From a virus, in IMG/VR virus record IMGVR_UViG_3300045988_020405: 17,746 nt of DNA, one strand, 5' to 3'. The notes under the pieces are model-generated. The model was given only the letters and a program-made list of their open reading frames with translations. It had not been told where the DNA came from and ran no database searches. Made by a program: the position numbers and the translations under genes. Shown one piece after another: positions 1 to 17,746 of the stretch (position 1 is the first letter of the stretch; each line of letters starts with the position of its first letter).

Positions 1-99
1 TTTTTTTGCTGTTTTTTTGTGTGTTGGGCGTGTTGTTTTTTTGGTGTGTTATTATATAAGTATCAACCAAGGATATAGAAAGGATGGTGGTTGAGATGA
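1..99. repeat. Left inverted terminal repeat (99 bp)
   Basis: Bases 1-99 are the exact reverse complement of 17648-17746, checked base by base. Identity breaks at 100/17647. The repeat begins with T7, and the unit TTTTTTTG occurs at 1-8, 12-19 and 36-43. Confidence 0.95.
33..60 (+). promoter_or_regulatory. Candidate sigma70-type early promoter inside the left ITR
   Basis: TTGTTT (33-38), 16-nt spacer, TATAAG (55-60). An alternative is an extended -10, TGtTATTAT (47-55). It lies upstream of the first ORF. Motif reading only. Confidence 0.35.
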
Positions 100-1697: not shown

Positions 1698-2135
1698 ATG
1701 GCTGACAACGAACTGACCGTAACGAACGGTAATAACTTTTCTGCGAACGGCGCTAATGCTGTGTCCCATTTCTTCGACACCACTACTATGGACGGTAAAA
1801 TGGCGCTCTATAACGCCATGCAGACCACCGACAAGGTGGACGAACATCTTAATGAACCACTGCATGTGACCAACGTGCTTGCGCAAGTTATCGAGGTCGC
1901 CAATCAGGAAACGGGTGAGATTGACTCTTCTACCCGCGTGGTCATTCACGCGGAAGAGGGCGACTTTGCCGCTGCCTCCCCCACATTGGCGCACGCTTTC
2001 GGTAATCTGTTCGCCATCTTCGGCACGCCGGACACGTGGGACCATCCGCTTGCTCTCAAGGTGGTGGAAAAGAAGAGCCGCCGTGGATTCAAGTTCTTCG
2101 ATCTTGAACTGGTGTCGGAAAAAGACCGTGGATAG
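1698..2135 (+). CDS. Probable phi29 p5-like single-stranded DNA-binding protein
   Basis: SD AAGGAAAGG. Eye alignment to remembered phi29 p5: FFDTTTMDGKMALYNA vs FDTETLEGQIKIFNA, and LALKVVEKKSRRGFKFFDLEL vs FKVKVVQGTSSKGNVFFSLQL. It lies upstream of the terminal protein and polymerase genes. Confidence 0.6.
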   Translation: MADNELTVTNGNNFSANGANAVSHFFDTTTMDGKMALYNAMQTTDKVDEHLNEPLHVTNVLAQVIEVANQETGEIDSSTRVVIHAEEGDFAAASPTLAHAFGNLFAIFGTPDTWDHPLALKVVEKKSRRGFKFFDLELVSEKDRG

Positions 2136-3218: not shown

Positions 3219-4679
3219 ATGAAAGAGCGTCGAACGGCGGCAACAGACGGCGCAACACTCTTGACGGATGACGGCACGGAACCATTGACGGCGAACGCCG
3301 TCATCCGGCTTACCATGCTCGACCATCATACACGCGTATGGTGCGCCCACGGATGGCAGGATATCAAGCCCATAGCCGCCGAACTGTTGAAACGACTCCC
3401 CTTGCAATCGAATCCAGCCAAGGACGGCGTGTGGGGAACGTTCAACATTCGCGGCCACTTCTACAGTTTTCGCGTGCGCATGGGCGGCATCACCGTGGAT
3501 TTTCTGGACGTGCGCAATGTCACGCGAGACGATGGCCTGAATGTTTCACGTGAAACATTCGGAGGAACCACCGACTTGGAAACCACGTGGAACATCGCGC
3601 AGGAATGCGCCGCCCTGAACCTCAAGGGCACGACCATAGCATCAATGGCGGTGACCGACTACATTGATGGCGATTACGCCGGATTCAAACGCCATTTTCC
3701 GCCATTGGACAAAGAGGCTTATCATCGGATGCGCCCCGCCTACTATGGGGCGATAGTGTACAGCAAACCGGGTGAATACCGGGATTGCCGGAGTTGGGAT
3801 GTGAACAGTCTCTACCCAAGTATCATGCGCGATGCCCCCATGCCGGTAGATGCCCCCGTGTGGTATGACGGGAAGTATCGTTATGATGCTGATTATCCGC
3901 TGCATATCGACGTTATCGCGTTTGACGCGCGATTGAAAACGGGGAAAACGGCAACGCTCACCAATATCCTGCCAGTATGGGGGTATGAGGGCGAACGCTT
4001 GGACAGTACGCTCGGCGTCGTCACCATGCCCATCACGGATGTGGATTGGGAAACGCTCACGGAAAACTATGACATCCACGTGTGGGAACATGTCGGCGGC
4101 TGGAAGTTCCGCAAATCACACGGGTTATATTATACGTATGTGGACAAATGGTTTCACGTGAAACAAACCGCGACCGGAGAGCGCAGGCAGATGGCGAAAC
4201 TGTTACTGAACTCACTGGTGGGAAAATTCGGGGCCTCGCTCTACCGGCCCATGTTGCATCCGAAACCGTCAGTGGATGGTGGGGTGGATTTTACCGTGGA
4301 CAAACCCGAGTCGGCCAACAGTCTGGCATGGTTGCCGACCGCCGCATATGTCAACGCCTACGGGCGACAAATATTGTCCCGGGCGATGAATGCGAACGCC
4401 GACCGTGTACTTTACGCCGATACCGACGGCATGATATTGGAAGGGTTGGATGCGCCCTCAGGTATCGAAACAGATGACCGGAAACTAGGGGCGTGGAAAA
4501 ACGACCACACCTACGAGAAGCTCAGTATCCTAGGCAATCGTAAATACTGCGGTGTGGAAGCGGGTGGAGATACGGTAATGCGTTTGAGTGGTGTGCATCG
4601 TGCCGCCCCCATCCCCTATGATGAGTTCCTGCCGGGAGCGCGTCACCTCAATGATGATGGCCATAGTTTCGTGCTATAA
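3219..4679 (+). CDS. Protein-primed family-B DNA polymerase (phi29 gp2-like)
   Basis: SD AAAGGA. Motif A is DVNSLYPS (nt 3798-3821), motif B is KLLLNSLVGKFG, motif C is YADTDG, and the KxY motif is NRKY. There is long collinear similarity to remembered phi29 gp2, for example GKYRYDADYPLHIDVI vs GKYVWDEDYPLHIQHI. Confidence 0.95.
   Translation: MKERRTAATDGATLLTDDGTEPLTANAVIRLTMLDHHTRVWCAHGWQDIKPIAAELLKRLPLQSNPAKDGVWGTFNIRGHFYSFRVRMGGITVDFLDVRNVTRDDGLNVSRETFGGTTDLETTWNIAQECAALNLKGTTIASMAVTDYIDGDYAGFKRHFPPLDKEAYHRMRPAYYGAIVYSKPGEYRDCRSWDVNSLYPSIMRDAPMPVDAPVWYDGKYRYDADYPLHIDVIAFDARLKTGKTATLTNILPVWGYEGERLDSTLGVVTMPITDVDWETLTENYDIHVWEHVGGWKFRKSHGLYYTYVDKWFHVKQTATGERRQMAKLLLNSLVGKFGASLYRPMLHPKPSVDGGVDFTVDKPESANSLAWLPTAAYVNAYGRQILSRAMNANADRVLYADTDGMILEGLDAPSGIETDDRKLGAWKNDHTYEKLSILGNRKYCGVEAGGDTVMRLSGVHRAAPIPYDEFLPGARHLNDDGHSFVL
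3539..3560. repeat. 22-bp perfect palindrome containing GTTTCACGTGAAAC (copy 1, inside the polymerase ORF)
   Basis: GAATGTTTCAC|GTGAAACATTC, read directly. It encodes LNVSRETF. Confidence 0.95.
4151..4164. repeat. 14-bp perfect palindrome GTTTCACGTGAAAC (copy 2, inside the polymerase ORF)
   Basis: Read directly. It encodes WFHVKQ, a different codon phase from copy 1. Confidence 0.95.
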
Positions 4680-4680
4680 T
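4672..4680 (+). promoter_or_regulatory. Perfect extended -10 element TGcTATAAT
   Basis: TGCTATAAT overlaps the polymerase stop codon (TAA 4677-4679). It would start transcription near 4687, at the beginning of the structured intergenic region. Confidence 0.4.
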
Positions 4681-4686
4681 AACTAA

Positions 4687-4850
4687 CAGCGGGGTGTGCG
4701 TCCCAAGTCGATTCGACGGCCCGACCGTAAGGCAAGTCGGTAAGGCGATTCGGTCGGATGTAGACGTGCGTAGCCAGCGCCCAGCGACGGCGAGGGAACC
4801 CGCACAGCCTAGCAAACCGGCATGACGGCGTGATTGCCGTCATGCCACTT
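4687..4850 (+). ncRNA. Candidate structured RNA (pRNA-like packaging RNA, or the 5' leader of the late operon)
   Basis: The 181-nt GC-rich gap has no credible ORF. A long-range helix pairs 4692-4704 with 4794-4810. An internal helix pairs 4721-4727 with 4751-4757. A perfect 11-bp hairpin spans 4819-4846. The extended -10 lies just upstream. There is no sequence homology evidence. Confidence 0.2.
4819..4846 (+). terminator. Strong hairpin (possible terminator or processing site)
   Basis: GGCATGACGGC (4819-4829) / GCCGTCATGCC (4836-4846) with loop GTGATT. It is followed by ACTTACTTT, a poor U tract. Confidence 0.4.
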
Positions 4851-4866
4851 ACTTTAAGAGGTGATT

Positions 4867-5211
4867 ATGGACGACACCGAAAACGATGACAAGCCGGACA
4901 CCACACCCGACACCGAGCCGGACGCCAAGCCAACCGACGATAATACGCCGAACCCGGAGTCTGAAACGCAGGATGACGGCGAACCGGAGGACGCGGGCGA
5001 CGACAAGGACGCCGACATGGCCAACCGTCTCAGCGCTTTGGAAGCGACGGTGGCGGAACTCTCCAAAACCATTGAGGCGATGCGCGATGCCGCCGCAGAC
5101 CACGTACTGAACGATGGCCCGGATGGCGACACGACGCCGGAATCGGCTGAAATGACAGACGATGACTACAACGGCACTTACAGCACGTTCGATGATTTGT
5201 TTGAAGACTAA
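4867..5211 (+). CDS. Probable scaffolding protein (gp7 analogue)
   Basis: ATG 4867 is preceded by AGAGGTG at 5-nt spacing. The 114-aa protein is very acidic with a predicted helical segment (ANRLSALEATVAELSKTIEAMRDAAA). It lies directly upstream of the capsid gene. Positional inference. Confidence 0.55.
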   Translation: MDDTENDDKPDTTPDTEPDAKPTDDNTPNPESETQDDGEPEDAGDDKDADMANRLSALEATVAELSKTIEAMRDAAADHVLNDGPDGDTTPESAEMTDDDYNGTYSTFDDLFED

Positions 5212-5233
5212 TAATTAGGAAGGATTGATTATC

Positions 5234-6967
5234 ATGCCAACCACTCCAGTGGTGACGCCGAAACAGCAGTTGCGACCGCTCACCGAATTCAACAACGCGC
5301 AGATTCTCAATATGATTCGCAACGAGGCATCCCCCGAATATCAGAGGCGTATGCCCTCGGCCACCCAAATGAACATGGACAGGCAGATGGCCACCCTCAT
5401 GTCATCCACCCAGCTAAAGAACGAGTTCTACTCGGCTCTGGTGAACCGTATCGGCGGCACCTACGTGAACACATGGCGGTGGAACAATCCGCTAAGTGTT
5501 TTCCAACGTGCGTCTCAGATGTATGGGGACACGTGGCAGGAAATCGCCGTAGGTATGCCGCTCGCACAGGTGTACGACCCCGACGCGGAATACTTGGGCG
5601 CGGACAACTTCCGTAAGTGGAAAATCGATGTGGATTCGCTCTACCATCGTCTGGACTTTGCTCACTGGTATCCCGCGACTACGGATGACAAGACGCTCCA
5701 GCGCGCTTTCACCTCCGAAACCGGCCTAGCCTCGCTCACCTCGCAGATTCTCACCTCCTGCTATAATGCCGCCGAGGTTGACTTGTTTGAGGCCATGTGC
5801 CACCAGTTCGTCGAGTATGCGAAACTCGGCGGATACTGGCGCGTGCACATGACCAATGATTTGAACAACATGGGCAGTTCGGAAACCGACGCGCGCGACA
5901 TGTTGCGCCAGATTCGCGCATGGGCTGACACGCTGAAGTTCGTGTCCACCCGGTACAATGCGCGTCATATGCCGACGTTTGCCCGCCCGGATGAGCTTGT
6001 GTTGTTCTGTTCGCCTGAAGTCAAGTCGGCGCTTGATGTTCAGGGTCTGGCCACGGTGTTCCAGCGCACGGACGCAGAACCGACCATTGACCGGATTATC
6101 GTCATTCCGCAGGACAGGTTTGGCATGGACGGCGTGCAAGCCATCCTCACCACTGATAAATTCCTCATTGACATCCCCGTCATTAATGAGATGACCCAGC
6201 AGACGAACCCGGTTAACATCAATTCGGTCAACCATTACCTGCACGTCCAGCACATTATCAGCGTGTCCGGCTTCGCCCCCGCCGTCATGTTCTGGACGGG
6301 CGCGGGTTCCACTGCCAACGTGGTGCCGCCTACCGGCACGACAGCCCAGACGCCGACCTTCCAACTTAAACTCGCCATGTACGGCGGCGGCTCGACCACG
6401 CCAACAAATGTGGCGCGTGGCGGCGCTGTGCAGGTCACTGCCGATACGACCATCACTAATGATGATACGGCTACGTTCCGGTCGGATGCTGTCGAGTACG
6501 CCATCGGTGATACCTCCAAGCCGAAGAGTGATTACACGTACATTTCGCCTACCGGCGTGCTGGTGGTCGGCCTTGATGAGCCGAACACCACTATTCCGAT
6601 TACCGCGACCGCGCTGTATACGAACCCGACGACACCGGAAGTGCCGTGCGCCGTGTCCGCCGCCCTGAGCGTGCCGGTGGTCGGTGATGGTGTCATCGGA
6701 TTCAACCCGTCGATTATCGCATCCATTGCCGTGACCATCCCGGCAGTGACCGTGAACCATGCGGCACAGGCGACCGCTACGGCGACCATGATTGACGGCC
6801 GAACCGCCGACGTGACTGCACAGGCCGCATGGACTTCAGGCACCCCAGCCAACGCCACCGTATCCGAGTCGGGTGTTGTTACGGGCGTCAAGGCAGGCAC
6901 ATCCGATATCACCGCCACGCTGTTCGGCGTATCCGGCAAGAAGGGCGTGACCGTGACAGTCCCCTAA
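5234..6967 (+). CDS. Major capsid protein (phi29 gp8-like) with C-terminal Ig-like (Big_2-type) domain
   Basis: ATG 5234 follows AGGAAGGA. SQILTSCYNAAEVDLFEAM aligns with remembered gp8 SSIINAIYNSAEVDEYEYM, and SALVNRIGGTYV aligns with TSLVDRIGLVVI. The C-terminus ATVSESGVVTGVKAGTSDITATLFGVSGKKGVTVTV is Big_2-like. Confidence 0.92.
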   Translation: MPTTPVVTPKQQLRPLTEFNNAQILNMIRNEASPEYQRRMPSATQMNMDRQMATLMSSTQLKNEFYSALVNRIGGTYVNTWRWNNPLSVFQRASQMYGDTWQEIAVGMPLAQVYDPDAEYLGADNFRKWKIDVDSLYHRLDFAHWYPATTDDKTLQRAFTSETGLASLTSQILTSCYNAAEVDLFEAMCHQFVEYAKLGGYWRVHMTNDLNNMGSSETDARDMLRQIRAWADTLKFVSTRYNARHMPTFARPDELVLFCSPEVKSALDVQGLATVFQRTDAEPTIDRIIVIPQDRFGMDGVQAILTTDKFLIDIPVINEMTQQTNPVNINSVNHYLHVQHIISVSGFAPAVMFWTGAGSTANVVPPTGTTAQTPTFQLKLAMYGGGSTTPTNVARGGAVQVTADTTITNDDTATFRSDAVEYAIGDTSKPKSDYTYISPTGVLVVGLDEPNTTIPITATALYTNPTTPEVPCAVSAALSVPVVGDGVIGFNPSIIASIAVTIPAVTVNHAAQATATATMIDGRTADVTAQAAWTSGTPANATVSESGVVTGVKAGTSDITATLFGVSGKKGVTVTVP

Positions 6968-6982
6968 TCTGCGATATAATAA

Positions 6983-7012
6983 AAGGGAGTGTTTCACGTG
7001 AAACACTCCCTT
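6983..7012 (+). terminator. 30-bp perfect palindrome (copy 3 of GTTTCACGTGAAAC); terminator-like hairpin after the capsid gene
   Basis: AAGGGAGTGTTTCAC|GTGAAACACTCCCTT begins 16 nt after the capsid stop and is followed by CTTTAT. Confidence 0.6.
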
Positions 7013-7030
7013 CTTTATGAAAGGGATAGT

Positions 7031-9280
7031 ATGCTGAGAGATATCAACCCTAACGTCGAGGCGACGTTTAACTGGGCTCAATGGACGCCCAACACGTCGC
7101 TGAAACTCTGTAACGTGCCGTGGGATAGCAGTTACCGTGACCTAGCCCGGTTCGAATCACCGCAGAAACAACAGGAATGGTTCGACCGACGGCCCGGCAT
7201 TGACAGGGTGCATGGAGTCATGCACATGTTCGGTCAACCCGTGCGCGTCGAACTGCCATTTAACGAGGCGTCCAACTACAACTATGTCGTGGTGTATAAC
7301 GATTACCCCGACTTGGAGACGCCACGGTATTGGTATTATTTCATCAACCACGTGGATTACATCAATGCGTACACTACTCAGCTCACTGTACAGTTGGACG
7401 TTTGGCAGTCGTTCCAGCATGTGCTTAGGTTTGGTTCATGCTATGTGGTGCGAGGCCATATCGGCATTGCCAACGAAAACCAGATGACCGATTATGGTCG
7501 CAGTTATCTCGCACTACCCGAAGGGCTGGACACCGGTAGCGAAATGGTGACGGTAAACCAACAGTACAAGTCTCTTATCAGCATGGACGGGAAAAATCTG
7601 AATTACGGCGTAATAGTCGTGAGCACGGTAGATTTGTCAGCGGACGCGGGCAGTCAGGAAAAACCGTCTCTCACTACTGCGGGCGGCTCTCTGTTTGAGA
7701 ACATGGCTAACGGTGCTGAAATACTGTACTTTAAGGATATCCAGTCTATCCAAGTGTTTATGGGAGTGGGCTCTACTTTTTCATGGATAACACAGGGTAT
7801 TGTAAACATGTACATGATACCCTCTTTAGATGATGACTTTCTTAAGCAATCCGGCTATGTCGTAGATAAGCTGTTTGGGAAAACACTCCCTTCGGAATTA
7901 AATAATCGTATCTACCGTTTCCCCCAGTCAGCCACAAATGCGCCCAGCAGATATGAAGACATTATTACCATTAATGATTTTCGTGATAATTTTAATATCC
8001 CTAAACGTTACAAAAACCTTAAAAAACTCAAATGCTACCCCTATTCTACTGTTGAATGCACTTGCTTGAATGGCACTAATATCACCTATAAGCCCGAAAA
8101 TATCCAAAGCGATAATCTGGTTATTAGAGAGGTGCATAATTACGCGCCCAATGGCGCGCGCTTGAACTTTTACCCGGTTGGGTACAATAAGGCGGGTGCA
8201 AGCGAGATTGCTCCTCTTGATAAAAACAATGGGTTGCCCATTGATAGCGGGGAAATGTTGGACGCCGCGTTTGGCATCAGCAATTTCCCTCAATTTGTGA
8301 TAGTCAACAATGGCGCTCAGTTGGCAATGGCAAACAGTGCCTACACTCGTTCCTACAGTCAACAGTCCGCTGGCTGGGCGTACCAAAAAGCGCAGATGGG
8401 CATCAGCCAGTCTCTTGCGGCCACGGCCATGCAAAACCAGTACAATACCCAAGCCAACAAACTCGCTATCGGCAACCGCAACGCCAATAACGCGATACAA
8501 GCAACCTCGCTTAACACCAGTCTGGACAACACGACATATATCAACAATCAGCGAGCTGACCTCGCACAGCTGAATAACGTGGTTAACGGCGTGGTCGGGG
8601 TGGCGGGTAACGCCGCTTCGGGCAATATCGGGGGCGCGGTATCGGCATTAGGCGGCGCGGTCATGAATGGCGTCAACACTGAAGCAAACCGCAGTATCAA
8701 CAATACCGCCGCCCAACTTTCCACGGCGAACTCGCTGAGTACCAACGCGGCCACAACAAGTCAGGCCAACACATACGGCTCTCAGACTACAGCGCTTTCA
8801 AACCAGTTGGCCCAAAATATGGCGGATATGAACGCGGATTACGCGCAACGTTCCGCGTTCGGAGACTATCAAAACACCATTGCGGGCATCAATGCACAGG
8901 TACAGCAGATGCAATTAACACCCCCGACCACATCCGGTGCCATCGGCGGAGACGGTTTTAACCTCGCAAACGGTATTGTCGGGGTGTTGGTTCGATTTAA
9001 GACGTGCGCACCCTCAGCTCTGCGGAGCGTCGGAGAGTACATGTTGCGTTACGGGTATTTTATCCAGCGTTTCATCACGCCGCCGCAATCGCTGGAATGT
9101 ATGACAAAATTCACCTACTGGCAGATGCAGGAGTGTTACGTGCGAGGTGATTTGCCCGAGCAGTATCGGCAGACCATTAAAGGCGTGTTCGAGTCTGGGG
9201 CTACTATATGGACTAACCCGGACGATATCGGCGTGACCGATTGGGCGGATAACGACCCATTGCCGGGCATTTCATTCTAG
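7031..9280 (+). CDS. Tail knob protein (phi29 gp9-like)
   Basis: ATG 7031 is preceded by AAGGGA at 5-nt spacing. YWYYFINHVDYINAYTTQLTVQLDVWQSF aligns with remembered gp9 [30 protein letters not shown]. The C-terminus YGYFIQRF...GATIWTNPDDIG aligns with YGYKINRV...GITLWHTDNIG. There is a Gly/Ala-rich hydrophobic loop. Confidence 0.9.
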   Translation: MLRDINPNVEATFNWAQWTPNTSLKLCNVPWDSSYRDLARFESPQKQQEWFDRRPGIDRVHGVMHMFGQPVRVELPFNEASNYNYVVVYNDYPDLETPRYWYYFINHVDYINAYTTQLTVQLDVWQSFQHVLRFGSCYVVRGHIGIANENQMTDYGRSYLALPEGLDTGSEMVTVNQQYKSLISMDGKNLNYGVIVVSTVDLSADAGSQEKPSLTTAGGSLFENMANGAEILYFKDIQSIQVFMGVGSTFSWITQGIVNMYMIPSLDDDFLKQSGYVVDKLFGKTLPSELNNRIYRFPQSATNAPSRYEDIITINDFRDNFNIPKRYKNLKKLKCYPYSTVECTCLNGTNITYKPENIQSDNLVIREVHNYAPNGARLNFYPVGYNKAGASEIAPLDKNNGLPIDSGEMLDAAFGISNFPQFVIVNNGAQLAMANSAYTRSYSQQSAGWAYQKAQMGISQSLAATAMQNQYNTQANKLAIGNRNANNAIQATSLNTSLDNTTYINNQRADLAQLNNVVNGVVGVAGNAASGNIGGAVSALGGAVMNGVNTEANRSINNTAAQLSTANSLSTNAATTSQANTYGSQTTALSNQLAQNMADMNADYAQRSAFGDYQNTIAGINAQVQQMQLTPPTTSGAIGGDGFNLANGIVGVLVRFKTCAPSALRSVGEYMLRYGYFIQRFITPPQSLECMTKFTYWQMQECYVRGDLPEQYRQTIKGVFESGATIWTNPDDIGVTDWADNDPLPGISF

Positions 9281-9289
9281 TGCTATACT
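9281..9289 (+). promoter_or_regulatory. Extended -10 TGcTATACT placed 6 nt before the portal ATG (leaderless geometry)
   Basis: TGCTATACT (9281-9289), then AGAGAC, then ATG 9296. TTGCCG (9260-9265) lies 18 nt upstream of the -10. The portal gene has no good SD. Confidence 0.35.
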
Positions 9290-9295
9290 AGAGAC

Positions 9296-10252
9296 ATGTC
9301 TAGGTCGAGGAAAAATCAGAATCGTAGGGGCGGCGCGTTGCACCCGCGTGGCAATTACGCCAAGGCACGCGCCGCCAGCCTTGACGCAATGTATTATCAC
9401 CTGTTGACTGAACTGGCACTGAACCGGTTCAGTTGGCGGGGGCTACCGCCAACCGTGGATGAACGATGGCTGGAAATGTGTCTCTGCGAATACGGGTGCG
9501 CGCTCTTCTTCGAAGACAAACGCATAGGTCGGTTCCTCGCTACGCAAGCCGGTTATCAAGGCCGATTGAACGTGTATAACAACCCGACGTGCTTCGAGCC
9601 GGTGGGCGTCAACTACCATTACAAGCAACTCAAGGCGGGCCGTGAATGCATCCCGATTTGGGACAATCGTATGCGCATGAGTTTCAAAGATATCTTATGG
9701 CAGTATGCGAGACGCCTCGCCGACATTGACAAGGCATATGACGTGAACTTGGAGAGCCTGAAACTGCCAACCATCATCACCGCCGACCCGCGCACCAAGC
9801 TCACCGTACAGAACATGCTACAACAGCGGCAGGATGGGCAGGATTATATCATCGGATACGATTCACTCGACCCCGGTAGCATGTTCCAACCGTGGCCCAA
9901 CACCACCCCCTATCTGCTGGACAAGTTCATCCAGCAAAAAACGCAGGTGACCAACGAGGTGCTGGGCTATTTGGGCATCCAGTCCAGTGGTACCGAGAAA
10001 AAAGAGCGGCTCATTTCTGATGAGGTGGCGCAAGCCAACGAGAAGGTAGACGTGTTCCGATTGAGTTTTCTCAAGGCGCGACAGACTGCGGCAACCGAGA
10101 TTAACCGATTGTGGCCGCAACTTAACATCTGGGTAGAGTACGCGGACGCGCAAAGCTCCGGTGTGCCGAACGCGCTGGACTCCAGCGCAAGCGGCACGAC
10201 GGATATTGATATGCCCGCCTCGTATGACGCGGGTATCGGAGGTGTATTGTAA
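9296..10252 (+). CDS. Portal / upper collar connector (phi29 gp10-like)
   Basis: FSWRGLPPTVDERWLE aligns with remembered gp10 FEWENLPPTINPSFLE, and LGIQSSGTEKKERLISDEV aligns with LGIKNANLEKKERMVTDEV. It is 318 aa vs 309 aa. The N-terminus is Arg/Lys-rich. Confidence 0.93.
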   Translation: MSRSRKNQNRRGGALHPRGNYAKARAASLDAMYYHLLTELALNRFSWRGLPPTVDERWLEMCLCEYGCALFFEDKRIGRFLATQAGYQGRLNVYNNPTCFEPVGVNYHYKQLKAGRECIPIWDNRMRMSFKDILWQYARRLADIDKAYDVNLESLKLPTIITADPRTKLTVQNMLQQRQDGQDYIIGYDSLDPGSMFQPWPNTTPYLLDKFIQQKTQVTNEVLGYLGIQSSGTEKKERLISDEVAQANEKVDVFRLSFLKARQTAATEINRLWPQLNIWVEYADAQSSGVPNALDSSASGTTDIDMPASYDAGIGGVL

Positions 10253-10485
10253 TGATGACTTGTGACACTATGGTAAGACTTGTGTCTGAAATGTATGAAA
10301 TCGCCAATAAAATCAGTAAGGCGGAAGAAGCTATGGATAGCTATGAAAACGGGGGCTTGTCCATGTCCGACCAATCTGCGGAGCTACTGAGAAAACAAGT
10401 TGTTGCAATGAAAACATATCATGATATCGTCGCCGCACGTATTAGCCACCAAACGGGAGAAGCCACGTATGGTACAGAGTTTTAG
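10252..10485 (+). CDS. Hypothetical small protein (77 aa), predicted helical
   Basis: Its ATG overlaps the portal stop (TAATG), with SD GGAGGTG 7 nt upstream. I know of no phi29 counterpart between genes 10 and 11. Confidence 0.5.
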   Translation: MMTCDTMVRLVSEMYEIANKISKAEEAMDSYENGGLSMSDQSAELLRKQVVAMKTYHDIVAARISHQTGEATYGTEF

Positions 10486-11263
10486 CGCCTATGCGATGAC
10501 AACGCCCGGCGAGTACACCGAAACTCTCGGCAATCTCATTGCATTCGGATACGACACGGACGCCAGACTGCACCTCAGCGCCGACTATTACCCGATTTAC
10601 GATGAGAGCCATCGCACTGAGTTGAACGAGAAAATCATCCGCCATTACGCGCTTAGGGAGATTGGTCAGGAAACCGCCCAACAATTCATCTTCTACTTGG
10701 GTATGACGATGGCGGAAATCATGCCATATTTTAATGAGCGCTACAGGACGCTAGCGTTGAAATATGACCCATTGAACACTATGGAAATGGTCAGTGAAAG
10801 CCTGTCCAATACTGTAGCCCAGTCCAGCGGCAAAACCAGCGCCTCTCAGGATAGTGCGACCCGAAGCTCCTCGGACGGCACCAGTTCGAGTAGCACCAAG
10901 TCCCAGTCCTACGACTCGGAAGTGCCCGCAACCGGCGTGCAAGGTGATTTTGCTCGATACGCGACTCATGCCAATCAGGCGCAAGCGGATACGGACGGCA
11001 GTAGCCATAGCACGCAAGATACCTCCTCTCAGTCCCATAGTACATCCAGCACGGAATGGCAACACGACGCTACAGATGGGAGCACCAAATCCCACACGTC
11101 GGGCCGCTCCCAGTCCGCCATGAGCCTGATACAGGAGTACCGACAGGCCATCATCAACGTGGATATGGAAATCGTGCGGAGCCTCGAACCGTGTTTCATG
11201 CAAGTATGGGGGTCTTATGATACAATTTTCAGCAACTGCCATAACTACGGAGAATGGGAGTAA
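10469..11263 (+). CDS. Lower collar protein (phi29 gp11-like)
   Basis: ATG 10469 is preceded by GGGAGAAG at 7-nt spacing. It follows the portal gene. YPIYDESHRTELNEKIIRHYALREIGQET...EIMPYFNERY matches the lower-collar family pattern as I remember it. It has a Ser/Thr/Gln-rich central region. Confidence 0.65.
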   Translation: MVQSFSAYAMTTPGEYTETLGNLIAFGYDTDARLHLSADYYPIYDESHRTELNEKIIRHYALREIGQETAQQFIFYLGMTMAEIMPYFNERYRTLALKYDPLNTMEMVSESLSNTVAQSSGKTSASQDSATRSSSDGTSSSSTKSQSYDSEVPATGVQGDFARYATHANQAQADTDGSSHSTQDTSSQSHSTSSTEWQHDATDGSTKSHTSGRSQSAMSLIQEYRQAIINVDMEIVRSLEPCFMQVWGSYDTIFSNCHNYGEWE

Positions 11264-11265
11264 TC

Positions 11266-11901
11266 ATGGTTGCCATTAACGCGCCGATTCCACAGCAACG
11301 CCTGTTTGACGGGGTGCCCACGTCCGTTCCGTTCACCTATCGGGATGGGTTGACCACGCTGCAATTGATTGAATGTCTTCGCCACAATCTTGATGCCCTC
11401 CAATGCGATTTGAGCAAGCTGGAAGAGTACACCACCGACTTTAAGGCATCCATAGACAAGACTCTTGCGGATACCGTGGCGCAAGTTAACAAGTCCATGT
11501 CCGATTTACGCGCGGAACTACTGGCCCTGATTGGTGAGATGAAACAGCAGGGCGTAGCAACCTCCCCAGTGTACGGGGTCACGCAGCCGCTCGGGGACGT
11601 GCTTGGCGGCATATATGACAATGCGCGCAATCATGGGTTATTCTGGGGTGATTACGATGACATGCAGTTAACCGCTCAGGAGTATGACGGGCTTATCCTC
11701 AAGGCACGCGAATATGATTTACGCGCCACCGCCGTGGATAATTGCGTCCCCGGCGATTTTCCGGGACGCTCGCAATTCCCCTATGGGAAATCCATGCCCG
11801 AGAATCCACCCGCCGACATGGCATATATCACGCAATCAGAGGCGGACGCGCGCTATGTCGAACGCAATCCGACCGCCGACAATTTCGATAATAAGGAGTA
11901 G
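11266..11901 (+). CDS. Tail appendage/fibre-associated structural protein (function uncertain)
   Basis: ATG 11266 is preceded by GGGAG at 5-nt spacing. It has a coiled-coil-like N-terminal half and a fibre-type motif, TQSEADARY, near the C-terminus. It sits between the lower collar and the fibres. Confidence 0.45.
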   Translation: MVAINAPIPQQRLFDGVPTSVPFTYRDGLTTLQLIECLRHNLDALQCDLSKLEEYTTDFKASIDKTLADTVAQVNKSMSDLRAELLALIGEMKQQGVATSPVYGVTQPLGDVLGGIYDNARNHGLFWGDYDDMQLTAQEYDGLILKAREYDLRATAVDNCVPGDFPGRSQFPYGKSMPENPPADMAYITQSEADARYVERNPTADNFDNKE

Positions 11902-11903
11902 CA

Positions 11904-12320
11904 ATGACCGCAACCAACCATACCGCAAACTATAATCTAAGCCAGTTCGCCGGTGCCGACCGCCCCACGTGGCTCGGTGACTATAACGGCGACATGGCTA
12001 AGATTGATGCCCAACTGAAGAAGAACGCGGACGCCATCGCATCCGGCACAGGCGGGCTTAAGACCGTGGCGCACACCACCGACCTCACCGGTGACGGCAC
12101 GACCGGCTCCCCGCTGGGCGTGGCGGCCACTATCGCCAAGAAAACCGACATCCCGGACGTGCGAGGCTTCGCCACCACCAGCGCCCTCACCTCGGGACTT
12201 GCGGGCAAGGTCGATAAAACCGCTTCACAGCCCACCACGCTCGGATTGACGGCGGCTGAGCTTGACTCCATGTACAAGGACGCAAACGGCATCGTCCGCG
12301 TCGGCACCCCCGCGAAATAG
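11904..12320 (+). CDS. Short tail fibre protein (paralogue A)
   Basis: SD AAGGAG. The N-terminal NYNLSQF..DRPTWLGDYNGDMAKIDAQ motif is shared with the next ORF and is typical of phage fibre N-terminal anchor domains. Confidence 0.6.
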   Translation: MTATNHTANYNLSQFAGADRPTWLGDYNGDMAKIDAQLKKNADAIASGTGGLKTVAHTTDLTGDGTTGSPLGVAATIAKKTDIPDVRGFATTSALTSGLAGKVDKTASQPTTLGLTAAELDSMYKDANGIVRVGTPAK

Positions 12321-12335
12321 AAAGGAAAAACGATA

Positions 12336-13268
12336 ATGTCCACTACACAGCACACCGGACACTATAATCTGCCAACGTTCGGCGACAGTCCGAACGACCG
12401 GCCGTCATGGCGCGGTGATTTTACCGACGCGATGACTAAAATCGATAATCAGATGTACGCCAACGCAACCAACACCACCACGGCAACGGCGGCGGCGAAC
12501 AATGCTAAGGCGGCGGCGGACGCGGCCAAGAAATCGGCCGATAACGCGGCAGGGCTTGCGCAAGCCAACAAGACCGACATTGCAGAGCAGGCATCCTACT
12601 TCAACGCGCTCGGTATCACGTCGGTGCCGACCGCGCGGAACCTTAAAGACACCATCAACGGCAAGGCGGAGAACACCGCACTTCAGGCGCTTCAGGGCAC
12701 CGTGTCAGGCTTGTCCGACAGCCTCAACGGCAAGGCGAACAGTAGTGAAGTGTATTCCAGAGCTCAGGCGGACACGACGTTTACCAAGCAGGGCGGATAC
12801 TCGGGCACCGCACAGCAAATCCACACTGAAGCGACAAACGCGACGGAATCGGCGGCGAACGTACAGAAGGAACTAACCAGCCTGAAAACCTCGGGACAGT
12901 CACCGGTTGCAGTGATTCAGCGAGTTAACGTGTTGACTAGTCATTTTTCTAACGTATCATGGACGGTATATTACTCACCGCTGTCAAAGTTCGTTAACAT
13001 CATGGTTCGTTTCGGTTCGGTAGATGGGCGCACCAACGCTAAATGTACGTCGAACGTGACCTCCGGTTCCCTTACCATCGGGACAATTCCGGCAGAATAT
13101 CGACCGGAAGGCTTTATGAACTCCTATTCATTCACGGTCGGTAACAGCTCCGGCCCATGCAACGTTAGTGTCAACGCTGAAGGGGTTGTATCCTTTTACT
13201 GTCAGGGGTCAATTGCGCCAAACGCTCAAGTGAAAGAGACACCACACCTCTCTTATTTTGTAATCTGA
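12336..13268 (+). CDS. Tail fibre / receptor-binding protein (paralogue B)
   Basis: SD GAAAGGA. It has the same N-terminal motif (HYNLPTF..DRPSWRGDFTDAMTKIDNQ), an Ala-rich coiled shaft, fibre repeats (SEVYSRAQADTTF) and a beta-rich C-terminal head. Confidence 0.65.
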   Translation: MSTTQHTGHYNLPTFGDSPNDRPSWRGDFTDAMTKIDNQMYANATNTTTATAAANNAKAAADAAKKSADNAAGLAQANKTDIAEQASYFNALGITSVPTARNLKDTINGKAENTALQALQGTVSGLSDSLNGKANSSEVYSRAQADTTFTKQGGYSGTAQQIHTEATNATESAANVQKELTSLKTSGQSPVAVIQRVNVLTSHFSNVSWTVYYSPLSKFVNIMVRFGSVDGRTNAKCTSNVTSGSLTIGTIPAEYRPEGFMNSYSFTVGNSSGPCNVSVNAEGVVSFYCQGSIAPNAQVKETPHLSYFVI

Positions 13269-13293
13269 TACCAACCTAACACCCCGCAGCCTC

Positions 13294-13339
13294 ATGTTTC
13301 ACGTGAAACATACCCCGTCCGGTACTCCGGGCGGGGTAT
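13294..13339 (+). terminator. Tandem hairpins after the fibre gene (copy 4 of the palindrome plus a GC-rich stem-loop)
   Basis: An 18-bp palindrome, ATGTTTCAC|GTGAAACAT, spans 13294-13311. It is followed by a stem 13310-13322 / 13327-13339 (13 pairs, one G-U) with loop TACT. Confidence 0.55.
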
Positions 13340-13348
13340 ACTAATACT

Positions 13349-14563
13349 ATGGTAGACGTACAAGCATGGTTGGAACGCACCCAAAACCAATACTGGGATA
13401 TGGACGGGGCTTACGGCGCTCAATGCTGGGACTTGTGGGCGAAATACTGCATGGACAATTACAATCTAAGTCTTGGTGATTGCATCACGCCCACAGGTTA
13501 CGCGGAGGGCAATTACACCATGTTCCCCACCACGGCGGCGGTTGGACGTGTTTTTGAGAAAAAGGACGCCGACTATACGCCCGGCATGGGGGATGTCGTG
13601 TTTTGGAGGTTCGGCAGTCAAAACTACCCCGGCAGTCACGTGGCCATCGTGTGGGGTGGCGTCCGAGGGGATAATATCGACGTGTTGACGCAAAACCCGA
13701 CGCCCGCCGTGCATCAATTGTTGCCGCTCGCGAAAGGTTCACAACTGCTTGGCTATCTGCATCCCACTGCATTGCCGGAACCGCCGGAATCTGGCGATAA
13801 TCCGACAGGCGGTAATAATCCGGGTGTGAACGTGGACGGCGATATCTCCGCGTGGATACAATTACAGGGCGATAACCTCGTATGTCACAGTGGTTCGGGC
13901 ACGACGTCATCGCAATCCGTTTTCTATAAGGCGAGCGCCCAGACTTGGATATATCGTGGCGGCACGGGTCAGCCGGACGCCGACCAAGGTCAGGGGACGC
14001 CAAGCGTAGGCGACGGGAAAAGCTCATACGCGCTCTATGTCATCGGCACTGTCGAGTCATCATTACGCTGGGATGCCGTCGAACCTAACAATCAGGGTAT
14101 CGGCATCGCACAATGGTCGTTTGGTAGACGCTTGCAGGTGTTGAACGCTATGAAAGCGGTTGACGCCGAGGGGTATAAGTCGTTTGCCGCTGCCGCGCCA
14201 AACATCGCCACGCTTATGGAATCAGGCGGCGCGTTCGATAGGGCGATGACCGGTAGCGAGGTCGCCGCATTCCAGACGTGGGCGCGGCGCACGGAATCAC
14301 GACAGGGTCAGCGTAATCAGTTCGCAAAGGATTACGAGGGCTACCCGCAGATGTATGATGATGTGAAAATGCAGATACTGTGGGTGAGCGCCTATCATCA
14401 AAGCCCGGCGGGCGCGTTGAATGTGCCTCATGCTTCATCTCTTACCCAACTGTATAATAATATCCTTAATACGCCTCCGTTCGGGCCATACGGGACGCGC
14501 TACAACACCGTCTACTCGCTGTTGAACGTGTGGGACGGCACCAGTGCGCCGCCGAACTTCTGA
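13349..14563 (+). CDS. Tail-associated peptidoglycan hydrolase: N-terminal CHAP peptidase + C-terminal gp13-type lysozyme-like domain
   Basis: The CHAP signature has its Cys in GAQCWDLW and its His in PGSHVAIVW. The C-terminal part, GTVESSLRWDAVEPNNQGIGIAQWS, resembles the phi29 gp13 N-domain pattern QSES...G.G..QW. It occupies the gene-13 position. Confidence 0.85.
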   Translation: MVDVQAWLERTQNQYWDMDGAYGAQCWDLWAKYCMDNYNLSLGDCITPTGYAEGNYTMFPTTAAVGRVFEKKDADYTPGMGDVVFWRFGSQNYPGSHVAIVWGGVRGDNIDVLTQNPTPAVHQLLPLAKGSQLLGYLHPTALPEPPESGDNPTGGNNPGVNVDGDISAWIQLQGDNLVCHSGSGTTSSQSVFYKASAQTWIYRGGTGQPDADQGQGTPSVGDGKSSYALYVIGTVESSLRWDAVEPNNQGIGIAQWSFGRRLQVLNAMKAVDAEGYKSFAAAAPNIATLMESGGAFDRAMTGSEVAAFQTWARRTESRQGQRNQFAKDYEGYPQMYDDVKMQILWVSAYHQSPAGALNVPHASSLTQLYNNILNTPPFGPYGTRYNTVYSLLNVWDGTSAPPNF

Positions 14564-14564
14564 C

Positions 14565-14604
14565 ACAGTGACAAACCGGTAGATATATACCGGTTTGTCA
14601 CTGT
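14565..14604 (+). terminator. 17-bp perfect hairpin immediately after the hydrolase stop codon
   Basis: ACAGTGACAAACCGGTA (14565-14581), loop GATATA, TACCGGTTTGTCACTGT (14588-14604). All 17 pairs were checked. The U tract is weak. Confidence 0.55.
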
Positions 14605-14615
14605 TGTATGGTAGT

Positions 14616-15722
14616 ATGGATACTATGGAGAGGCTGTTAGCTGAGGGCGATTATTACGATTATGGGAGCGTATTATCCTATCACGCGCCTTGGATGTTCG
14701 TAATCGGCGCACGCGGCCTCGGAAAAACCTACGGAGCCAAAAAACTGGTCATAGGCGACTGGATAAAAAAACGCTGGCAATTCATCTATCTAAGACGTAC
14801 CGCCGAAGAACAGAAAAACAAGGGCACGTGGTTCGCAGACATCGCGGAACAATACCCGAAATTAGAGTTCCGCATATCCGGCAATCAAGCAGAATGTCAC
14901 TGGCTGGATGACAGGGACGCCACCACGGACAAACACGGCAAGACACGCCCAACATGGCACATCATGGGGTACTTCATCGCCCTCAGTCAAGCAGGACAGG
15001 TGAAATCGGTGGCCTATCCCAAGGTGCGAACCATTGTTTTTGATGAGATTTTCCCCGATAATATGCGGTATTTGGGCGGTGAAGTAACCGCGCTTGAGGA
15101 GTTCTATAATACGGTTGACCGTTGGAATGATAGGGTTCGCGTCATCATGTGCAGTAACGCGGTGACGTTGGCCAACCCGTATTTCAGCGCGTTCAACATC
15201 AATCTTAAACCGCAACTGGACAATCGCACGCAATACCAGCGCTATTGCAACGGGTTTATCATGGTGGAACTGGCTGACTACGGAGGGTTCAGCGCCAAGG
15301 TGGCCACCTCGAAATTCGGGCAGTTTTTACGCGAATATGACGAAAATTATGCGAATTATGCAATCAATAATGATTTCAGGGATAACGCCAATACTCTCAT
15401 CAGTGATTTCAATAACGCCGGTTATGCGTTCACATTAAGAACCACCGAATACGGTATTTTCAACGTGTATCAACAATTGAGTGACACCGATGAAGTATTA
15501 TATGTCATCACCAAGAAACAGCCGAAAATCACTAGGGATTTTACGTTTGACTACCGCCTAGTTGACAATGATTGCATCATGCTCAAACGTTCCGATGACA
15601 TGACACAGAAAATACTGAACGCCTATCGCGTCGGACGATTGCGTTTTGAAACACCGCAAATCAAAGCAGAATTCAGTATGATTCTTGGCGGCTTGTTGCA
15701 ACAATCAGGCATAAGAAAGTGA
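14616..15722 (+). CDS. DNA encapsidation ATPase (phi29 gp16-like)
   Basis: Walker A is GARGLGKTY and Walker B is RTIVFDEIF. FVIGARGLGKTY aligns with remembered gp16 FVIGARGIGKSY, and RVIMCSNAVTLANPYF aligns with RCICLSNAVSVVNPYF. The start is uncertain, either ATG 14616 or ATG 14625. The track's TTG 14595 lies inside the hairpin. Confidence 0.92.
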   Translation: MDTMERLLAEGDYYDYGSVLSYHAPWMFVIGARGLGKTYGAKKLVIGDWIKKRWQFIYLRRTAEEQKNKGTWFADIAEQYPKLEFRISGNQAECHWLDDRDATTDKHGKTRPTWHIMGYFIALSQAGQVKSVAYPKVRTIVFDEIFPDNMRYLGGEVTALEEFYNTVDRWNDRVRVIMCSNAVTLANPYFSAFNINLKPQLDNRTQYQRYCNGFIMVELADYGGFSAKVATSKFGQFLREYDENYANYAINNDFRDNANTLISDFNNAGYAFTLRTTEYGIFNVYQQLSDTDEVLYVITKKQPKITRDFTFDYRLVDNDCIMLKRSDDMTQKILNAYRVGRLRFETPQIKAEFSMILGGLLQQSGIRK

Positions 15723-17160: not shown

Positions 17161-17190
17161 AATAAGCCCCCGCAGATTGCGGGGCTTATT
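17161..17190. terminator. Bidirectional terminator between convergent genes
   Basis: AATAAGCCCC (17161-17170) pairs with GGGGCTTATT (17181-17190), with three further inner pairs and one bulge. TTTGTT follows on +. It lies between the endolysin stop and the stop of the minus-strand ORF. Confidence 0.65.
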
Positions 17191-17465: not shown

Positions 17466-17663
17466 TCACTCAACTACACGATTCAAAAAAACCACAGGCT
17501 CAAAATAATAACGATAAAACTCGACCCCCTCACGCTCATACATAACAACAAGACAATCAACAATAGCCTCAACATCATAATCCACAACACGCTCACCACT
17601 GTTGCGAATATAATCAACAACCTCATTCTCAATGTCTTGACGATACATCATCTCAACCACCAT
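17466..17663 (-). CDS. Hypothetical right-end early protein (65 aa; alternative start at 17651)
   Basis: Its first five codons (MVVEM) lie inside the ITR and are identical to those of the left-end ORF 84-311. The rest is unrelated. Its stop overlaps the alternative GTG of the next ORF. Confidence 0.45.
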   Translation of the reverse strand: MVVEMMYRQDIENEVVDYIRNSGERVVDYDVEAIVDCLVVMYEREGVEFYRYYFEPVVFLNRVVE

Positions 17664-17746
17664 CCTTTCTATATCCTTGGTTGATACTTATATAATAACA
17701 CACCAAAAAAACAACACGCCCAACACACAAAAAAACAGCAAAAAAA
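17648..17746. repeat. Right inverted terminal repeat (99 bp)
   Basis: Exact reverse complement of 1-99. The window ends in A7, which is T7 at the 5' end of the minus strand. Confidence 0.95.
17687..17714 (-). promoter_or_regulatory. Mirror copy of the ITR promoter, firing leftward into the right-end genes
   Basis: Identical sequence by ITR symmetry, located upstream of the minus-strand ORF 17466-17663. Confidence 0.35.

Follow-up and report, generated by a model that had tools for sequence, protein, structure and literature searches.

In bacteria, parS is the chromosomal centromere sequence and the site for a dimer of ParB (Spo0J). A review table gives the parS consensus TGTTNCACGTGAAACA for B. 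subtilis and C. glutamicum, GTTTCACGTGAAAC for M. smegmatis and TGTTTCACGTGAAACA for Hyphomonas, and the same 14- or 16-mer has been published as parS in S. pneumoniae, Caulobacter and others too. Phage phi29 carries five parS sites, through which host Spo0J brings its infecting genome into the Bacillus forespore (Meijer et al. 2005, as related in PMC2731898); in the same account, Spo0A boxes (TGTCGAA) repress the phi29 lytic programme. Here, we describe a 17,746-nt stretch of viral DNA (IMG/VR record IMGVR_UViG_3300045988_020405; the whole stretch is called the window) in which a palindrome matching parS occurs four times.

Four copies of the parS consensus in a phage without detectable par genes

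Rescanning the window for the palindrome GTTTCACGTGAAAC located exact copies at 3543-3556, 4151-4164, 6991-7004 and 13296-13309 (referred to as S1 to S4), as claimed by the original prediction, and no fifth site with up to 2 mismatches. The expected number of sites is 0.07-0.10, and none of 200 dinucleotide-preserving shuffles reached four, in agreement with the earlier view that the repeat is non-random. The 16-mer TGTTTCACGTGAAACA, which had been noted as common to three copies, has no mismatch at 3542, 6990 and 13295 and a single one, at its outermost base, at 4150; the window holds no further 16-mer of this kind within 3 mismatches. When aligned with the 16-bp parS consensus TGTTNCACGTGAAACA, three sites match at 16 of 16 positions and S2 at 15 of 16 (mismatch at outer position 1). 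Nearly all of the full-text literature matches to the 14-mer, among those listed, were ParB/parS papers. We conclude that the four palindromes are almost certainly parS sites of the host chromosomal type, and that they are bound by host ParB is very likely. Among the roles first proposed was an operator, in view of the CACGTG core, for a dimeric regulator of host or phage; this pointed in the right direction, toward parS and the dimeric ParB, but the parS identity and the phi29 precedent had not been recognised. The palindrome is not known to match the sites of the regulators LacI/CcpA (cre), Rex, KstR, FabR and SmtB.

Each copy lies within a perfect palindrome of its own, of 22 nt (3539-3560), 14, 30 (6983-7012) and 18 nt (13294-13311), the lengths given originally. 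The accompanying suggestion that the flanks co-vary to preserve symmetry was borne out for S3 only: the T...A pair at +/-8 belongs to the parS consensus, and the extra 3 palindromic bp of S1 concern a codon, TTC or TTT, that is free to vary in the lineage.

The window ends in 99-nt inverted terminal repeats that are 100% complementary, and genes were assigned by Pfam (20 open reading frames (ORFs) scanned) and PHROGs. Because of these repeats and of its gene content, we take the window to be a complete linear, terminal-protein-type genome of a phi29-like podophage, its proteins being only ~25-30% identical to their phi29 counterparts. A ParA or ParB (PF02195-type) domain was found in none of the 20 ORFs with Pfam, nor in the early ORFs with PHROGs, and the phage appears to be of the virulent type and to encode neither protein itself.

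The host is indicated by homology along three lines. By capsid protein, the nearest isolates are the Bifidobacterium phages BadAztec and BadAargau (42-43% identity) followed by BD811P1-3 and BP1 (37-38%). Along its entire length, the endolysin shares 63% identity with a locus of a Bifidobacterium phasiani genome, and it is 57% identical to endolysins of unrelated Bifidobacterium siphophages; among 5.8 billion proteins, its homologues were phage relatives only, with no host names. Because of the capsid-nearest isolates and the endolysin relatives, the host is most likely Bifidobacterium, a non-sporulating actinobacterium. Members of this genus form no endospores. Spo0A boxes are not enriched in the window (3 found for 2.77 expected; none of them in the left early region or close to a genome end), which is consistent with a non-sporulating host. 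According to the literature, ParABS is present in all Actinobacteria, where it is associated with the pole through ParA-DivIVA, and a Bifidobacterium genome has been reported with ParABS and consensus parS.

Conservation and origin of the sites among relatives

Through the capsid protein, 80 metagenomic relatives (L002-L081), with capsid proteins 91-96% identical to that of the window, were retrieved from IMG/VR. Exact copies numbered four in 7 relatives, three in 25, two in 25, one in 12 and none in 11, and they always lay at the same four places, namely polymerase codon 108, polymerase codon 311, ahead of the tail-knob gene and ahead of the CHAP gene. We regard these four positions as orthologous across the lineage. 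The palindrome thus recurs in related phages at the positions originally described, but 11 of the 80 genomes lack any exact copy.

S1 and S2 lie in two different reading frames of the DNA polymerase ORF. S1 is read AAT GTT TCA CGT GAA ACA (N-V-S-R-E-T) and S2 TGG TTT CAC GTG AAA CAA (W-F-H-V-K-Q), directly upstream of the polymerase motif KLLLNSLVGKF. The S1 position is shared at the same codon in 78 relatives. In 76 polymerase genes, which differ from that of the window by 6-18% of nucleotides, the 14-mer was intact in 67% at S1 and in 55% at S2, values at the 98th and 94th percentiles of the 14-nt windows of the gene, for which median intactness is 22%. Variants of both sites in relatives are synonymous third-position transitions, and the most variable base within S2 is the N position of the parS consensus. 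When synonymous codons were shuffled with the proteins kept, two or more exact sites arose in 1 of 2000 trials. We take these results as evidence that the motif is selected as DNA; synonymous entropy was not used as the main evidence.

How the two coding copies came about can be seen when the polymerase is aligned to those of other Bifidobacterium phages. Between conserved W and KQ, S2 encodes the tripeptide FHV where the polymerases of BD811P and BP1 (phages of Bifidobacterium dentium/pseudocatenulatum) and of the sister lineage described below have S/G-E/D/G-L; for K and Q, the window uses AAA and CAA, versus AAG and CAG in these polymerases. At S1, the right half-site comes from a conserved E-T (GAA AC.) and the left half-site from V-S-R. 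The alignment indicates that S1 and S2 were created by recoding of variable residues and codons and not inherited as an insert. An element borrowed from the host genome had been envisaged, and this too pointed in the right direction, the motif corresponding to the host chromosomal centromere sequence.

The third copy, reported earlier to lie just after the capsid gene, begins 24 nt past its stop codon and sits at the tip of a hairpin followed downstream by CTTCTTTAT. As a candidate intrinsic terminator, this structure combines a 13-bp stem with the tail CUUCUUUAU and falls just short of the terminator consensus scan. A -10-like TATAAT (6975-6980) precedes the hairpin and belongs to a promoter-like element, GTGACA-16-TATAAT (6953-6980), of which S3 occupies positions +1 to +20 before the tail genes. 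The S3 hairpin is likely to be a terminator or attenuator of the capsid transcript. With up to 2 mismatches, S3 is found in ~70 of the 80 relatives, in every case 39-47 nt ahead of the start codon of the tail-knob gene, and its stem variants are partly compensatory. In BD811P2 and BadAztec1, a -10-like box, a hairpin, a T-run and a ribosome-binding site likewise precede the tail-knob gene, with parS absent and unrelated loops. Because these phages without parS share the layout, the capsid hairpin appears to be ancestral and parS to have been built into it later. Of the two intergenic copies originally placed in terminator positions, S3 alone sits in a terminator-type hairpin, and that hairpin is older than the parS site.

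The capsid/tail-knob layout is fixed in Bifidobacterium phi29-like phages, with TATAAT or TAGAAT 1-3 nt before the hairpin, then the T-run, the ribosome-binding site and the start codon (window 6953-7030; L220 6985-7043; L211 10420-10475, - strand). It looks like an overlapping terminator and promoter, and a transcript begun at this -10 box would be without the 5' arm of the hairpin. Three relatives have another hairpin at the S3 position, GGCCCGGAGCG-CAAGCCACGTGAG-CGCTCCGGGCC, with a CACGTG loop and no full parS.

The fourth copy, likewise first described as lying just after the fibre gene, begins 28 nt past its stop codon and is followed directly by a hairpin that is not part of parS. In BD811P2, an analogous hairpin stands before the CHAP gene, with no parS. 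Of 33 relatives that keep the hairpin, 17 have S4, 54-64 nt upstream of the CHAP gene, and the hairpin is conserved in the others too. The minimum-energy fold at S4 leaves the motif's own stem unused. Some relatives have the same flanks and lack exactly the 10-nt core TTTCACGTGA: the difference between L046, L050, L054 and L078 on the one hand and L041 and L066 on the other is ccccaTG[TTTCACGTGA]AACAta versus ccccatgaacata. Here the core of the palindrome has been cleanly deleted or inserted, which provides natural S4-plus and S4-minus variants; L046 and L050 are variants with S4 deleted. Upstream of S4, the ends of the fibre genes fall into at least 5 sequence contexts among relatives.

A whole-genome megablast search against INPHARED gave a sole match, a 167-bp patch of 88% identity in MT836241 (L001). 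It pairs window 13290-13456 with MT836241 10859-11025 and takes in S4, the hairpin and the first codons of the CHAP gene; the patch points to a recombination junction immediately at the left border of parS. A sister lineage, retrieved with the MT836241 capsid protein, served as a negative control: its 80 genomes (1.28 Mb; the same GC, 52%; most of the same core genes; polymerase 37% identical) hold no site within one mismatch. Because these 80 relatives are without parS, the MT836241 patch was probably acquired by recombination. Here again, no parS was found in nine actinobacterial phi29-like isolates.

Within the lineage of the window, genomes are mosaic, with a conserved capsid gene (91-96%), two tail-knob types (~99% and 56% identity to the window), at least 4 CHAP-lysin types (~37, 57, 72 and 90%) and several fibre types. 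The number of parS copies mainly follows sub-clade membership in the replication module, and the parS-poor genomes all fall in the sub-clade with a divergent knob and early region. A host shift behind the loss of parS was considered; comparison of lysin and fibre genes in the parS-poor relatives gave no clean link to host-range genes.

The sites also extend to more distant phages. Among 120 IMG/VR contigs with the exact 16-mer, at least 22 belong to phi29-like phages that are only distantly related (25-35% protein identity, 32-49% GC); 2-4 sites, mostly intergenic, occur in many of them. The C. perfringens phages CPS2 (L223) and phiCPV4 (L224) have 7 sites each per 18 kb, several of them as tandem pairs spaced 25 nt; Bacillus phage Gxv1 (L228) has 6 and Enterococcus phage Athos (L221) has 2, and phage Cp-1 has none. 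By BLAST, 18-nt-perfect sites occur in 281 of 50,697 INPHARED records, including Microviridae and Listeria, Gordonia, Microbacterium and Lactobacillus phages. The Microviridae 'bajarodino viruses' carry ~5-7 parS sites in 5.9 kb. Neither the C. perfringens podophage paper nor a 2024 review of phi29-like phages mentions parS. The literature searched on parS of phi29-type phages yielded Salas-laboratory work only, and no prior report of host-type parS in non-Bacillus phi29-like phages, which is not proof of absence; nor did the literature searched yield a discussion, outside Bacillus, of the host-type parS sites that are common in other phage genomes.

Gene content and other features of the window

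The features of the window are collected in Table 1. Every large ORF is on the + strand. No Pfam or PHROG family was assigned to several early ORFs (84-1667), no DNA-binding domain was detected in the phage, and neither a pRNA nor any other RNA family was matched by Rfam anywhere in the genome.

Table 1. Positions of the parS sites, associated structures and genes in the window
Feature	Position	Strand	Remarks
Left inverted terminal repeat	1-99	.	Partner 17648-17746, 99 nt, 100% complementary
phi29-type SSB	1698-2132	+	Pfam/PHROG
Protein-primed family B DNA polymerase	3219-4679	+	Hosts S1 and S2; Pfam DNA_pol_B_2, E = 2e-32; PHROG 1907
parS S1	3542-3557	.	Perfect 16-mer TGTTTCACGTGAAACA; polymerase codons N108-T113
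parS S2	4150-4165	.	GGTTTCACGTGAAACA, one mismatch (outer position 1); polymerase ORF, codon 311
Phi29_MCP capsid protein	5225-6964	+	Pfam/PHROG
Perfect palindrome with S3 at tip	6983-7012	+	30 nt, 13-bp stem, ACGU loop; fold -24.7 kcal/mol, z = -5.2
parS S3	6990-7005	.	Perfect 16-mer; capsid/tail-knob intergenic region
gp9 tail knob	7031-9277	+	Pfam/PHROG
gp10 connector	9296-10249	+	Pfam/PHROG
parS S4	13295-13310	.	Perfect 16-mer; between fibre gene and CHAP tail-lysin gene
G+C-rich hairpin directly 3' of S4	13310-13338	+	13-bp stem, no U-tract; predicted fold, not part of parS
CHAP/lysozyme tail lysin	13349-14560	+	Pfam/PHROG
Gp16 packaging ATPase	14595-15719	+	Pfam/PHROG
Holin and GH25-LysM endolysin		.	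Pfam/PHROG

The DNA polymerase is short, with 486 aa compared to 572 aa in phi29 (1719-nt gene). Its Pfam match begins at profile position 169, and the N-terminal exonuclease part may be reduced; the polymerases of Bifidobacterium phages are likewise short (445-483 aa). The left end (1-1000) shows strong strand asymmetry (GC skew +0.40, AT skew -0.35): its top strand is rich in G+T, and GGTTTGATG-like motifs are repeated there. A 40-nt loopless near-perfect palindrome (14565-14604; ACAGTGACAAACCGGTAGAT / ATATACCGGTTTGTCACTGT; 95% complementary) lies between the stop codon of the tail lysin and the start codon of the packaging ATPase. Two neighbouring fibre-like genes start alike at 11903-11938 and 12335-12370 (MTATNHTANYNL / MSTTQHTGHYNL; direct repeat D5, 75% identity), which points to paralogous anchor domains at the N-termini and to an exchange of the distal parts. 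Transcription units probably end after the polymerase gene and after the endolysin gene, where there are terminator-like hairpins with T-rich tails (4819-4846, 12-bp stem, and 17168-17184, 7-bp stem, terminator-like on both strands, respectively).

Possible roles of the sites and comparison with known systems

We lean, with limited assurance, towards the view that the four sites load host ParB and that the phage genome is thereby tethered or partitioned in a host that forms no spores; tethering or partition during delayed or suppressed lytic growth is the model best supported by analogy with phi29. After injection, host ParB would nucleate at the four sites, and CTP-bound ParB clamps would spread over most of the 17.7-kb genome. 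The resulting partition complex, similar to that at the host origin, would couple the phage DNA to the host ParA/pole-anchoring machinery, and the genome would be positioned and passed to daughter cells instead of being lost or diluted during delayed lytic growth, in a carrier or dormant state. S3 would meanwhile keep its older job at the tip of the hairpin ending the capsid transcript. The Spo0J trick of phi29 would thus be transposed to a host without spores. The window presents some of the features that accompany spore entrapment on the phage side, namely a phi29-like protein-primed podophage with several host-type parS sites and no par genes; spore entrapment itself takes an endospore-forming host and would be impossible in Bifidobacterium. 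The further analogy with the phi29 lytic brake, in which Spo0A boxes lie at early and late promoters and towards the genome ends, was dropped, TGTCGAA not being enriched.

Several points weigh against partition. Everything beyond the sequence identity of the sites with parS is inferred, and the host is assigned from homology. The synonymous entropy ratios (0.74 for S1 and 0.82 for S2; ranks 62 and 91 of 365 windows) are modest. The sites are dispensable: 11 of the 80 relatives live without an exact copy, the copies at every position have decayed in one sub-clade, S4 has been gained and lost among relatives, and the sister lineage and all of the cultured Bifidobacterium phi29-like phages are without parS. 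No phi29-like Spo0A lytic brake was found in the window, and the dormant state that would pay for partition is therefore hypothetical. ParB clamps might also slide off a short linear DNA unless terminal proteins block them.

The same sequence evidence would serve if the benefit of ParB binding were its titration off the host chromosome. The high-affinity sites on replicating phage genomes would far outnumber the few at the host origin, strip the host chromosome of ParB and of the SMC that it loads, and disturb segregation, division or replication control to the advantage of the phage. A density of 4 sites per 17.7 kb, far above that of host chromosomes (1-20 per genome), and the tandem pairs of the C. 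perfringens podophages (7 per 18 kb), which look like high-capacity binding, would fit such a sink. We nevertheless hold it to be unlikely: the only studied case, phi29, uses its sites for segregation of the phage genome and not for host damage; parB is non-essential in most Gram-positive bacteria (review table), and its removal would therefore offer little leverage; and the host of a lytic phage is in any case dead after a single cycle.

Distinctly unlikely, in our view, is a role in genome organisation alone, in which ParB at parS would recruit SMC or condense the phage DNA for replication, late transcription or packaging with no partition. ParB-parS is known from the literature to recruit SMC and fold DNA, S3 lies at a promoter-like element and S4 just upstream of the lysin, packaging and lysis module, and ParB spreading from there could modulate late genes. 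However, parS is missing from close and sister phages that share these replication and packaging genes, and no evidence ties ParB to replication of the phi29 type.

The loss and decay of sites in part of the lineage, the presence/absence variation at S4 and the weak synonymous constraint could also describe a non-functional relic, acquired once, from a Firmicute-infecting ancestor or from host DNA for example, and drifting neutrally. This is very unlikely: at 6-18% nucleotide divergence, the 16-mer is still perfect at three sites; few 14-mers of the polymerase gene are as well conserved as S1 and S2, which seem to have been built by recoding, not brought in as an insert, and the codon shuffle gave its 1 in 2000. 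An operator for some other dimeric regulator, of phage or host, recognising the same palindrome has in its favour the early ORFs without a family and the overlap of S3 with a promoter-like site. It is more doubtful still, since the phage has no detected DNA-binding domain, two of the sites lie deep in a gene, far from promoters, and the 16-mer recurs in many unrelated phi29-like lineages of Firmicutes, for which the only common partner is host ParB.

Finally, the originally proposed shared terminator core or RNase processing site, like a hairpin on displaced single strands, would make the parS match a coincidence, and despite the strong S3 hairpin in terminator position, the partly compensatory changes in its stem flanks and the folding of S1 (z = -3.2), this is hardly credible, given that two copies lie inside the essential polymerase ORF, where termination would be harmful, that S2 has no significant fold (z = +0.7), that the bare 14-mer folds to a 5-bp stem only and goes unused in the S4 fold, that the BD811P2 and BadAztec1 hairpins with unrelated loops show that the structure needs no parS sequence, and that a chance 16/16 match to a universal protein site at three loci is very unlikely.

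If the sites serve partition, the consequences reach beyond this phage. The parS sites of phi29 have been a textbook curiosity tied to Bacillus sporulation; four host centromere sites, three of them perfect, in a phage of a probable non-sporulating gut commensal would imply that hijacking host ParB pays off outside sporulation. They would offer a handle on how small "lytic" gut phages might persist in dividing or dormant hosts, and a carrier state could explain the stable gut persistence of small phages held to be strictly lytic. The parS sites in C. perfringens podophages, some Microviridae and actinophages would then mark a general, largely unrecognised phage strategy, and their distribution hints at one that is wider than reported. 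As a tentative and rather doubtful generalisation, virulent non-integrating phi29-like phages of non-sporulating gut bacteria (Bifidobacterium; Enterococcus phage Athos) may mimic the host centromere and ride host ParABS, and so be actively partitioned like plasmids, in a carrier state for which they need neither partition nor lysogeny genes. Viromes could be screened for this lifestyle with a cheap sequence marker, host-type parS in the absence of par genes, which might also aid host assignment if parS variants differ between host clades. The S4-plus and S4-minus genomes already exist for comparison.

Among the known systems, the post-capsid terminator-type hairpins of BD811P2 and BadAztec1 resemble S3 in position, in a T-rich tail and in a stem, which is of 13 bp at S3. 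They differ in that the loop-proximal 16 bp of S3 are parS, absent from the homologous hairpins, and the other three copies are not terminators. The parABS of P1, the sopABC of N15 and the parABS of extrachromosomal mycobacteriophage prophages (PMC7157519) likewise provide centromere-like sites for inheritance of an unintegrated genome. By contrast with the window, in which neither parA nor parB is found, those cassettes encode their own ParA and ParB and have private sites beside the par genes, whereas this phage copies the host's own site. With chromosomal ParABS (parS, ParB-CTP clamps, ParA, SMC loading), the window shares an identical 16-bp consensus; its sites, however, are off the chromosome, not clustered near oriC and far denser, and the replicon is a lytic-type linear phage genome that would be capped by terminal proteins.

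The closest likeness is to phi29 and Nf: a small protein-primed podophage, 4-5 host parS sites scattered partly in genes and partly between them, and no phage ParAB. Our scan of phi29 found four copies of TGTTTCACGTGGAACA and one weak site, whereas the sites of the window are the perfect palindrome and not the B. subtilis variant TGTTCCACGTGAAACA. The site positions in the two phages are unrelated, and the sites therefore appear to have arisen independently, by recoding. In contrast to phi29, the host here is most likely a non-sporulating Bifidobacterium, in keeping with Spo0A boxes that are not enriched. Host-centromere mimicry in the manner of phi29 is thus known, and what is probably new is its occurrence in a phage of a non-sporulating actinobacterium.

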